From the IMG/VR virus record IMGVR_UViG_3300010275_000216: a DNA stretch of 46,051 nucleotides. One strand, given 5' to 3'. Source of the DNA: a virus. Lineage: Duplodnaviria > Heunggongvirae > Uroviricota > Caudoviricetes. Made by a program: the position numbers and the translations under genes. Shown in pieces: positions 35,333 to 38,697 of this stretch; the first letter of the stretch is position 1, and each line of letters opens with the position of its first letter. The notes under the pieces were generated by a model that was given only the letters and a program-made list of their open reading frames with translations, was not told the origin of the DNA and did not search any database.

Positions 35333-35462
35333 CAGAATCCTTCCGGATAATTAGCTCTCCCCTTTAAGGGACCATCCCTCTTATCCCTGCGCGCTACTTA
35401 AGTATTTTTGATTCTATTCCGGCACCGTCCAGAACTTCAAACGCGTTGAAAATAAAAACAAA

Positions 35463-35480
35463 AACCCGCCGAAGCGGGTT
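35463..35480 (-). terminator. terminator AACCCGC-TTCG-GCGGGTT plus T-run downstream of hok
   Basis: Read on minus strand about 70 nt after hok stop; a second hairpin GGCGAGGGA-TTTC-TCCCTCGCC at about 35520-35543 directly follows the stop. Confidence 0.55.
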
Positions 35481-35548
35481 AAGTGCGGGTGCGTTGAGGA
35501 TGCCTGCCACATCAGAGGTGGCGAGGGATTTCTCCCTCGCCGGGTCTC

Positions 35549-35704
35549 TTACTCCTCAGGTTCGTAAGCTGTGAAGACAGCGACCTCCGTCTGGCCGGTT
35601 CGGATTCGTACCTCGCAGAGGTCTTTCCTCGTTACCAGTGCCGTCACTATGACGGTTAAACAAATGACGATCAGGGCGATTAACATCGCCTTTTGCTGCT
35701 TCAT
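35549..35704 (-). CDS. hokD: Hok-family type I toxin (51 aa), HokD/RelF-like
   Basis: MKQQKAMLIALIVICLTVIVTALVTRKDLCEVRIRTGQTEVAVFTAYEPEE; AGGAG SD. Confidence 0.85.
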   Translation of the reverse strand: MKQQKAMLIALIVICLTVIVTALVTRKDLCEVRIRTGQTEVAVFTAYEPEE

Positions 35705-35900
35705 AGCCTGCTTCTCCTTGCCTTTCGGCACGTAAGAGGCTAACCTACATGTGTCTAGCATGAAATTGGCCTCAGATTAATGTTAAGCGTCTTGCAGGAC
35801 GCGTAATGTTAACTGGGGCTTTTCTCTATCTGCCGTTGGTGTTCATGCCCGAGGCAGATAGCCTCAAGCACCCGCAGCCATTCTACTTAACTACCGTTAC
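35705..35900. promoter_or_regulatory. hok leader region: in-frame 19-codon upstream extension (mok-like) and candidate antisense Sok-type RNA on plus strand
   Basis: ORF-track 70-aa form starts at ATG 35761; plus-strand promoter-like TTGCCT-17-TAACCT at about 35717-35745 oriented antisense to hok; inference only. Confidence 0.3.
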
Positions 35901-36319
35901 CTCGCCAATATGAAATCAATCAGTAAGGTGATCCATAAGAACAATAACAAGACAATAAATTGCCATTACAGCCACAATAGCCAGCGTGCATTTGAGAACC
36001 AGCACATAAATCTCCTGCTCTTGACGTATACAGGCACTGATAAATATGTGTCTTCGTGCTCGTTACTTCAATACGTAAGCGTCAGTTGCGCGTAATCAAA
36101 TCAGACAACCGACTTTAAACCAGGGACAAACAGCAGGTAAAATAATCAAACGTTATTTTAAGCCATATCATGGCTTCAAGATTTCCTCTAATTTCAACAA
36201 GATGAGCAGGTCATTGCTTGCACTGATGACCTGCTCATTAATCATGATTATTTGAAAATTAAGGTAGGCGTACTATATATAGAAACACTGCTACGCTCCG
36301 TTGTTGGCATAATATAAAA

Positions 36320-37006
36320 TCATTCCTGCCCTTCTTTACCGTAGTGGAGTTGACCAATTTTGATTAGAGGGCGTCCCTGAGATTTGCGGTGTAGATTGGT
36401 ATCGCGCAGTGAATACACGCAGCCACAATATTCCTGCTGATAGAATTGTTCGCGCTTGCTGATTTCAATCATGCGGGAAGAGCCGCCCTGCTTTCGCCAG
36501 TTATAATCCCAGTACACCATGCCCGGATAATACGCGACGGCTCGCCGTCCACAGTCGTTAACCTGCTGCATATTTTTCCAGCGTGAAATGCCCAGTGAGC
36601 TACTGATCACACTGAAACCATTTTCAGCGGCATACAGCGCAGTCCGCTCAAAACGCATGTCAAAACACATGGTACAACGGATCCCTCGTTCAGGCTCCCA
36701 TTCCATTCCTTTGGCTCGCTCAAACCAGTTGTCTGTGTCGTAATCAGCATCAATAAATGGCACGCCGTGTTGTTTAGCAAAGCGAATATTCTCATCCTTA
36801 CGAATTAAATACTCTTTCTGAGGATGAATGTTCGGGTTGTAGAAAAAGATGGTGTAGTCGATTCCCGAGGCCTGAAGCGCCTCCATCACTTCACCGGAAC
36901 ATGGAGCACAGCAAGAGTGCAGTAATAGTTTTTTTGCCCCGTTTGGGAGCTCCAATTTGGGGCGTTTGAAATCAGCAACAGTCATAAATGTGTTTATGAG
37001 GTTCAT
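36320..37006 (-). CDS. queH: QueH-like epoxyqueuosine reductase (DUF208)
   Basis: N-terminal [13 protein letters not shown], later CTMCFDMRF and QEYCGC motifs typical of DUF208/QueH; start uncertain (ATG 37006 or 36985, ORF-track GTG 37099), no clear SD. Confidence 0.55.
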
Positions 37007-37038
37007 GAAAATAGCAAAAAGTGTAGCATCAGAACGGG

Positions 37039-37341
37039 CTATCGGAAACAGATGTCTAAATCTGGTAATGTCTGCTTTTGATGCAAAGCAGACAACCACG
37101 GCAGCGCACGAAAATCAGCGATAATGTCGGGATTAATAATCGGGTGACGTCCATCACATAGCGAATGTTCCTCTTTCCTGATATCGCTAAATATCGACCA
37201 TTCGTCATTCTTATCGAACCAGAGCATGCGACTGCCACAGCACATGTCGAGAATGGTAGCCGATGTACTCACAGCATCACCTCCCGATAATTCCCCTGAT
37301 AAAACGTCAGAACACGCTGCATAACTTCGCTCTTCCGGCAC
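37039..37341 (-). CDS. doubtful ORF (100 aa, GTG start) overlapping neighbours in other frames; possibly remnant of a frameshifted gene
   Basis: No SD at any candidate start; overlaps 3' end of the 140-aa gene and 5' region of the QueH-like ORF. Confidence 0.2.
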
Positions 37342-37691
37342 TCGCGACAGATTATGTTTAGACGACTGTCGTAGCGGCGTATTTCTCCATCAGGTAATGA
37401 CCAGATAAGGTCCGGATCAACCACAGCAGGTTTCTTCACCTTTGCCCTCGAGAGTTTTTTGCGGGCGTTTTGCCAGTCCTTACGCGCCTGTTCAGACGGG
37501 AATAACCCGTAGCCGGAGTTGTATACATCGCCACTGGCTACCAGCTCTCTGGCAAGAACGCTCATCAGATATCTAGTCGCACCTGTTTTAGCTTCCAGTT
37601 GCCGTAACGTCTCACGACCGCTCTGGCGCACGAGTTCCACCACCTGCCCTTTAATTTTTTCCCGCTCTTCTTGTGTAAAAACTTTTGCCAC
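37269..37691 (-). CDS. hypothetical early-region protein (140 aa), GTG start
   Basis: GTG preceded by strong SD AAGGGGGA; follows replication gene. Confidence 0.5.
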   Translation of the reverse strand: MAKVFTQEEREKIKGQVVELVRQSGRETLRQLEAKTGATRYLMSVLARELVASGDVYNSGYGLFPSEQARKDWQNARKKLSRAKVKKPAVVDPDLIWSLPDGEIRRYDSRLNIICRECRKSEVMQRVLTFYQGNYREVML

Positions 37692-37731
37692 AAGTCCCCC
37701 TTAAAATTACCTCATGACCTGAAATCAACAT

Positions 37732-38697
37732 TTATCCTCTGAAACCAGGCGGAATTTCTGTATCCGGTTCAGAAATATGATTAACACAACGCTGTACAGG
37801 TGAACGTCCCAGGCGGATGACCAGTTCGTCCCATTTTTCGCGGAGCTTTGACGGGCTCATGATGTTTTTTACCCAGAATGGATCTCGCTGAACCCGACCA
37901 AACATTTCGCAAATTTGTCTGTGGCTTCTGCCATCCAGCATCCGCATTGTGCGCACGTCATTGGCCCAGGCAGTCCAGTTAGGCTCTTTTGGTCGCATGA
38001 TCTCGCCATCATCACTGGCTGCCTGTTCGTAGAGACCCACGATCCGCCCCCAGATCCACTGCGCACACGCCAAATCCTCCCTGCTACCCCACTGGCTTTT
38101 TTTCGCACTAAACACAACCGCGTCGGAGTTCCGGGTTAAAAAATCCTGTTCAGTCGTCTGCGGGTCCGGTTGCGAAGCTTCCGGACGAAAAGTGTTTTTA
38201 TTCTCTGTAGTAATCTCTGTTGTATTCTCTGTAAGATCATCAGGCCATTTTGACCCGATGACATTGGATCGTTTTGAACCAATGGAGCGTTTCATTTTGA
38301 CCTCTTCCATCGTGTCATTTTGACCTGATGGAGCGGCGCATTTTGAACCGATGGATTCGCTCAATTTGCCATCATCTAAAAGCTCGCTCTCGTAGTTGAT
38401 CGTGTAGAAATTGGTCATATCGCGCTTTGATTTATTGAGCTTTTCACAACGCAAAAGCCCCAGCTTTTTCAGACTTGCAAACGCGCGCTTTAACGTTGAC
38501 TCTGACCAGAATGGGAACTGTTCCAGCCATTGTTCCGTTGTGTTGTAAATCCAGCGAACACCATCACATTCCATGCCGGAATTGGTATCTCTCAACCAGT
38601 AATGCAACTGCTGCAACACAATGGCTTCATTTAAGCCAATCTTCATCGCAAGCTGTGTGTTTATAACCAGTGGGCGTTCAGCAAAAAGAAGGCTCAT
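37732..38697 (-). CDS. putative phage replication initiation / replisome organizer protein (O-like, about 321 aa)
   Basis: N-terminal winged-helix-like region, position downstream of cro-like/cII-like genes; ORF-track TTG start replaced by ATG 38697. Confidence 0.5.
   Translation of the reverse strand: MSLLFAERPLVINTQLAMKIGLNEAIVLQQLHYWLRDTNSGMECDGVRWIYNTTEQWLEQFPFWSESTLKRAFASLKKLGLLRCEKLNKSKRDMTNFYTINYESELLDDGKLSESIGSKCAAPSGQNDTMEEVKMKRSIGSKRSNVIGSKWPDDLTENTTEITTENKNTFRPEASQPDPQTTEQDFLTRNSDAVVFSAKKSQWGSREDLACAQWIWGRIVGLYEQAASDDGEIMRPKEPNWTAWANDVRTMRMLDGRSHRQICEMFGRVQRDPFWVKNIMSPSKLREKWDELVIRLGRSPVQRCVNHISEPDTEIPPGFRG

Follow-up and report, generated by a model that had tools for sequence, protein, structure and literature searches.

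What does it mean when three open reading frames (ORFs), each in a different frame, overlap one another immediately upstream of the conserved part of a QueH gene? The question was raised by a stretch of viral DNA of 46,051 nucleotides (hereafter, the window), in which a reading made from the sequence alone had noticed such a cluster and had suggested that it was a gene disrupted by a genuine indel, a gene split by a sequencing frameshift, or a case of programmed recoding. A six-frame ORF listing of the window confirmed all three ORFs on the minus strand: one of 140 aa (37269-37691) with a GTG start and a strong Shine-Dalgarno (SD) sequence (taaGGGGGactt-GTG), one of 100 aa (37039-37341) whose GTG start at 37341 has no SD, and one of 259 aa (36320-37099), which is the longest-ORF call for the QueH frame, open back to 37099. 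They overlap by 73 nt and 61 nt and lie in three different frames, and the description given by the sequence-only reading was therefore correct; however, the window has 97 ORFs of at least 90 aa, and by the same longest-ORF rule these form 28 same-strand pairs with an overlap of 20 nt or more, so the overlap is not unusual in itself. Both overlaps arise because each ORF was drawn back to the farthest upstream start codon available, and with the starts that are supported below (GTG 37272 and ATG 36985) they are replaced by a 4-nt GTGA stop/start overlap between the first two genes and a 53-nt gap before QueH. In addition, the three ORFs belong to three mutually unrelated families: DUF977 (the 140-aa ORF), class I methyltransferases (the 100-aa ORF) and QueH (the 259-aa ORF).

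The first of these, the DUF977/LygF gene (37269-37691, minus strand), is intact. LygF is the name given to the DUF977 gene in GenBank phage records, and in the window it encodes 140 aa from a GTG start with the SD AAGGGGG at 37696-37702. Its product matches Pfam PF06163 over the full length of the profile and well above the curated cut-off (101.6 bits against 22.1; protein residues 1-135 on profile positions 1-133 of 134), and it also matches the PHROG family phrog_142, “Ren-like exclusion protein”, at E = 7e-47. The same coordinates were assigned by PGAP to the CDS WP_001151183.1 in the identical genome NZ_CP019455, and DUF977 genes matching the window DNA are present in 4055 of 5426 complete E. 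coli genomes. On the function of DUF977, nothing relevant was found in the searchable literature.

The second ORF proved to be the front end of a methyltransferase gene. Its frame begins at a GTG (37272-37270) that overlaps the TGA of DUF977 as GTGA, the start and stop sharing 4 nt (the minus strand around this point reads ...cgGGAGGtgatgctGTGAgt...), and is preceded by its own SD, GGAGG, 7 nt upstream. From there it runs on the minus strand for 77 codons (37039-37272), of which only 37106-37272 is derived from a methyltransferase, accounting for the N-terminal ~56-58 residues. Over the remainder, 37039-37105, the orphaned frame reads on through ~20 codons of the QueH leader (the last 19-21 residues of the product) and then meets a TAG at 37039-37041. 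The 23 codons of upstream extension (37273-37341, minus strand) that bring the ORF to 100 aa are spurious, being the 3'-terminal part of DUF977 read in a different frame; in E. coli strain A37 this frame has a stop codon shortly before the conserved GTG, and therefore the 23 extra codons are not conserved coding sequence.

Comparisons of the remnant with phage protein families consistently ended at the same place. It matches positions 3-61 of the 117 in phrog_11564 (“DNA methyltransferase”, E = 3e-28) and positions 50-108 of the 229 in phrog_954 (also “DNA methyltransferase”), of which the A37 enzyme covers 50-205. Many phage methyltransferases match the remnant by tblastn, always via its residues ~1-60 only. 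A motif-I-like segment, ILDMCCGS, at residues 7-14 is identical in the enzymes of A37, ATCC 8739 and the Klebsiella phage, and the remnant thus retains the SAM-binding N-terminal segment (ILDxCCGS). Motif IV (DPPH) is absent, as the alignment stops at residue 56-62, before the VVFDPPH of the homologues. The remnant had no match in Pfam, and NCBIfam produced none for any of the five proteins scanned.

What has been lost is evident from the intact homologues, which are 153-161 aa in length with the DPPH at about residue 70-80 (E. coli A37; Klebsiella phage ST13-OXA48phi12.4), the VVFDPPH lying ~15-20 residues past the end of their similarity to the window, and which match PF08241 (Methyltransf_11) through residues 96-117, a stretch missing from the remnant. 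A37 (WP_240728603 / WP_240728814) and ST13-OXA48phi12.4 (QBQ71947) have the same gene order and the same GGAGG...GTGA coupling as the window, and the GGAGGTGATGCTGTGA signal also precedes the intact 161-aa methyltransferase of A37, directly after DUF977. The N-terminal 56-58 residues of the remnant are ~70-80% identical to the enzymes of this pair, two 10-residue stretches included, whereas residues ~59-161, with the DPPH and the C-terminal segment that matches Methyltransf_11, are missing from the window and a QueH cassette stands there instead. The lost part is not to be found elsewhere in the window: when the methyltransferases of ATCC 8739 (118 aa) and the Klebsiella phage (160 aa) were used as tblastn queries against all six frames of the whole 46 kb, only their residues 1-62 aligned, every other match had E of at least 0.86, and neither the methyltransferase C-terminus nor the DPPH segment was present in any frame. 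Since the remnant has neither motif IV nor a complete methyltransferase domain (~153-161 aa), it is to be regarded as a pseudogene and not as a member enzyme, and very probably it is non-functional.

One of the queries merits an observation of its own. The 118-aa “class I SAM-dependent methyltransferase” of ATCC 8739 (L005 2311-2667) and PhiR42_1 (L002 2811-3167) is annotated as intact, yet it is truncated at its C-terminus, stopping after ...GVLIF where the 153-161-aa forms go on with KWNET.... As this methyltransferase is also C-terminally truncated, decay of the gene is recurrent, and the event in the window may therefore not be unique.

The point at which the methyltransferase gives way to the QueH cassette could be located from both sides. 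Homology at the DNA level to the methyltransferase-carrying loci of ATCC 8739 and PhiR42_1 extends from 37760 down to 37106 and then ends; homology to QueH loci that have no methyltransferase begins at 37108 (L004 and L010) or 37100 (L009) and runs through QueH, the prophages compared on this side being TKEC21-59, 50EVA and O157:H7 Z563 (starts at 37108, 37108 and 37100, respectively). As read from these alignments, the reciprocal blastn breakpoints define a recombination joint at 37100-37108, between the 5' fragment of the methyltransferase gene and the leader of the QueH cassette, and the aligned parental sequences have a short, imperfect microhomology there (GCGCTGCCGT vs GAGCTAGCGTGG). In other prophage backgrounds, QueH follows directly after DUF977 with no remnant between them.

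The third ORF contains an intact gene for QueH (epoxyqueuosine reductase). Its product matches Pfam PF02677 at 219.5 bits (cut-off 23.5) over positions 1-174 of the 175 in the profile, and aligns to the QueH of Thermotoga maritima (PDB 7LC5; DUF208), with which it shares the CC, CxxC and CxC motifs of the solved enzyme (HSCCAPC, RCTMC and YCGCV). The cysteines equivalent to those of 7LC5 are presumably metal ligands.

The sequence-only reading had considered the true start of QueH to be uncertain, but sequence comparisons place it at ATG 36985, for a 221-aa product (36320-36985, minus strand). A genuine N-terminal extension from GTG 37099 or ATG 37006, which would overlap or abut the remnant, has in its favor that the frame is open back to 37099 and that the annotation of the isolated phage HannyBb (PP925841) takes the counterpart of ATG 37006 as the start codon. 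Against this, homology to both the Pfam QueH profile and 7LC5 begins only at residue 58 of the 259-aa ORF, and a chromosomal homolog from Acinetobacter, 78% identical, has its first Met aligned with 36985 and an in-frame stop upstream. The pattern of change in related alleles is also that of a non-coding sequence: relative to L004, there are 21 synonymous and 8 non-synonymous changes in the body of QueH, whereas the seven codons at 36986-37006 have 0 synonymous and 4 non-synonymous changes, and a 4-nt indel at 37033-37036 breaks the extension frame. Further, L011 has ATT in place of the upstream ATG and an in-frame TAA 3 codons before the conserved ATG, and PGAP called QueH as a 666-nt gene in every record examined. 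An extended QueH is accordingly a highly improbable alternative to the start at ATG 36985.

With the indel in L004, the ATT and TAA in L011 and the codon changes all telling against translation, the “5' extension” (36986-37099, minus strand) is therefore a non-coding leader of the QueH gene. Within it, at 37020-37028, is TGCTACACT, which resembles an extended -10 promoter motif and is common to five QueH leaders. A consensus promoter and terminator scan of 35400-37800 returned nothing in the QueH leader, with counts not above those of shuffled sequence, and for that reason TGCTACACT is proposed as a candidate cassette promoter only, a possibility suggested by the motif. The leader also has a hairpin at 37070-37093, and a function for it was considered and rejected: the fold is modest (z = -2.4) and it is not conserved, L009 having a degenerate form of it and L011 none.

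A sequencing or assembly indel that split one longer gene into three frames would have been the most mundane explanation for the locus, and the raw look of three overlapping frames is consistent with it, as are two T6 homopolymers, yet both of these lie inside the intact DUF977 gene. The joint itself, however, recurs. With a 236-nt probe across it, the joint was found at at least 99% identity in 71 of the 5426 complete E. coli genomes, strains B and C among them, and HannyBb is 99.3% identical to the window over 1.5 kb with zero differences in 36639-37552. Substitutions among the 71 joint-carrying genomes number 1-2 in ~1.4 kb, and within the remnant the only difference between the window and E. 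coli B or LR-31 is one synonymous change, with no indels. That independent complete genomes and an isolated phage carry the same joint excludes a sequencing artefact. Moreover, the three ORFs represent three unrelated families, DUF977 and QueH each span their Pfam models end to end, and the C-terminus of the methyltransferase is in no frame of the window, hence there is nothing to repair. The chance that an indel error created the arrangement is, in our estimation, negligible.

The arrangement is, in fact, already known from existing annotation. The listed records of joint-carrying genomes each annotate a “methyltransferase” at the joint, and in the three records examined in detail PGAP had flagged it as a pseudogene, “methyltransferase, incomplete, missing C-terminus”. 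In NZ_CP019455, which is 100% identical, the PGAP pseudogene corresponds to 37087-37272 of the window, its first base being that of GTG 37272. The RefSeq/PGAP loci of E. coli FHI_NMBU_03 (BXO92_RS21605-21615) and E. coli B (PCK13_RS07960-07970), identical or at least 99% identical to the window, have the same three calls: a DUF977 family protein, a methyltransferase pseudogene missing its C-terminus, and epoxyqueuosine reductase QueH. The HannyBb annotation (L001 3068-3754, 3787-3993) differs from these in that the remnant is started at an internal ATG with its truncation unmarked, and QueH, as a “hypothetical protein”, starts 21 nt upstream of the conserved ATG. The PGAP records, HannyBb and the 71 genomes thus provide what the sequence-only reading had itself set against a single disrupted gene, namely related prophages in which all three ORFs stand apart with their boundaries preserved. 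Its suggestion of a degraded gene was right for the 100-aa ORF and wrong as to an indel or frameshift as the cause, as the 3' end was replaced by the QueH cassette and no C-terminus survives in any frame.

Programmed frameshifting or other recoding, with DUF977 fused to the 100-aa ORF or the latter to QueH, was suggested by the overlaps on one strand (73 and 61 nt) between frames that are shifted, but it fared no better. No in-frame heptamer of the form X_XXY_YYZ occurs in either the DUF977 CDS or the 100-aa ORF, and the overlap frame is not open in relatives: the frame of the 23 overlapping codons has the stop in A37, and the QueH extension has the 4-nt indel in L004 and, in L011, the in-frame TAA and the ATT for the upstream ATG; thus neither hallmark of a programmed -1 frameshift was found. 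DUF977 is full length, and translation of the remnant has signals of its own, an SD and a GTG that is coupled to the DUF977 stop as in A37. Furthermore, the downstream partner in a fusion with DUF977 would be a truncated enzyme, and such a fusion would gain no activity. We consider recoding at this locus to have next to no likelihood.

A less easily dismissed idea is that the 77-aa product has been neo-functionalized as a small protein, e.g., a SAM-binding or regulatory fragment, and is kept as useful. The good SD, the GTG start, the translational coupling and the retained ILDMCCGS indicate that a 77-aa peptide may be translated, and the remnant is carried by a viable phage as well as by 71 genomes. 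Nevertheless, the product has no Pfam match, motif IV and two-thirds of the Rossmann fold are missing, and its last 19-21 residues are translated QueH-cassette leader. There are also ~300 other genomes with DUF977 and QueH that do without the remnant (368 genomes cover at least 80% of a 1511-nt query, as against the 71 with the joint), and the conservation within the 71 reflects recent common descent, given how few substitutions separate them. Within the remnant there is just one of these substitutions, the synonymous I51I, in genomes too similar for a test of selection. A retained function is thus very unlikely.

The explanation that we favor, and regard as very likely correct, is ordinary prophage mosaicism: an intact DUF977 gene and an intact QueH gene flank the front end of a methyltransferase gene, the rear of which was replaced by a recombined QueH cassette. 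None of the tests made produced evidence contradicting this explanation. The setting is the early-right operon of a Qin/Rac-type lambdoid prophage, with the joint a product of mosaicism, and the gene order on the minus strand is an O-like replication gene with iterons, DUF977/LygF, a cargo slot and hokD/sok. In the ancestor that we infer, a small class I SAM-dependent (phage DNA) methyltransferase of ~161 aa came next after DUF977 and was coupled to it via the GTGA and the GGAGG SD, a layout that survives unbroken in E. coli A37 and in about 850 further complete genomes (the methyltransferase stands alone after DUF977 in ~854 complete E. coli genomes). A partner prophage with a QueH cassette in the same slot would then have recombined with it at the microhomology inside the methyltransferase gene, at 37100-37108, so that methyltransferase codons ~1-56 were retained and everything from just before the DPPH onward was exchanged for the QueH leader and gene. 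The outcome is the 77-codon orphan ORF, which seems to have 100 codons only when it is extended to an unrelated upstream GTG. The direction of this exchange, with the methyltransferase as ancestral and QueH as incoming, is suggested by the truncation of the methyltransferase rather than by a phylogeny.

The slot after DUF977 (~36000-37270 in the window, compared with L004, L007, L009, L010 and L011) is a cargo and defense hot spot whose contents differ by prophage. Among the contents seen were an intact methyltransferase alone; QueH with a KwaB-like (Kiwa) gene; QueH with a Dcm methylase and an NgoMIV-family restriction enzyme; and QueH with TehB. Alternative cargo in a single slot, with sharp breakpoints, is also a feature of the “moron” and module-exchange mosaicism of lambdoid phages (from the replication genes to Q, the nin-like region). 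Where the window departs from the usual lambdoid exchange is that its joint is inside a coding sequence and has left a pseudogene stub, instead of being at a gene boundary.

Several other features in the neighborhood were recorded. At 35549-35873 (minus strand) is a hokD/mok-type toxin gene (Pfam HOK_GEF, 81.6 bits) overlapping a sok antitoxin RNA (Rfam RF01794, at 115 bits where the gathering score is 59), which together are a type I toxin-antitoxin system. Upstream of DUF977, inside the O-like replication gene (37732-38697), at least 5 repeat units with a period of ~23 nt and the core (C/T)(A/G)TTTTGA(A/C)C...GATG occupy 38238-38376 and are probably origin iterons. A weak Rfam match to the isrK sRNA at 35459-35540 (minus strand; 25.7 bits, E = 0.014, the gathering score being 50) may be due to chance, and a terminator-like hairpin is located within it, at 35463-35480.

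The recurrence of QueH extends well beyond the joint. QueH DNA at least 90% identical to that of the window is present in 995 of the 5426 complete E. coli genomes (~18%), including strains B and C, as well as in HannyBb, and in every locus examined the gene is just after that for DUF977. The searchable literature yielded no account of a QueH borne by a phage or prophage in E. coli, and a survey of 7-deazaguanine genes in phages had noted no homologs of QueA, QueG or QueH in the viruses analyzed (Hutinet et al. 2019; PMC6884629). The phage QueH has in common with its T. maritima counterpart a full-length Pfam match and the cysteine motifs; it differs in being the cargo of temperate phages and prophages, recognized here from its sequence, in a host that already has QueG. 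The QueG of E. coli is B12-dependent, and E. coli cannot make B12 de novo. The QueH cassette might be a phage “moron” that gives lysogens a cobalamin-independent conversion of epoxyqueuosine to queuosine in tRNA, a tentative proposal to which we would assign somewhat less than an even chance.

What, then, does this locus have to say more broadly? For genome scans, it shows cleanly that adjacent genes can pass for one frameshifted gene when every ORF is extended to its longest form. For the window itself, the boundaries are now fixed, with the QueH start at 36985, the start of the remnant at 37272 and the joint at 37100-37108, and re-sequencing is unnecessary. The pseudogene stub marks a joint of module exchange in a lambdoid prophage and has little wider biological weight. 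The more notable item is the widespread prophage QueH beside the remnant, which is the one lead worth keeping: if the cassette does act as proposed, it would be a case of lysogenic conversion of tRNA modification, in which a B12-independent QueH could alter the queuosine status of tRNA in lysogens.
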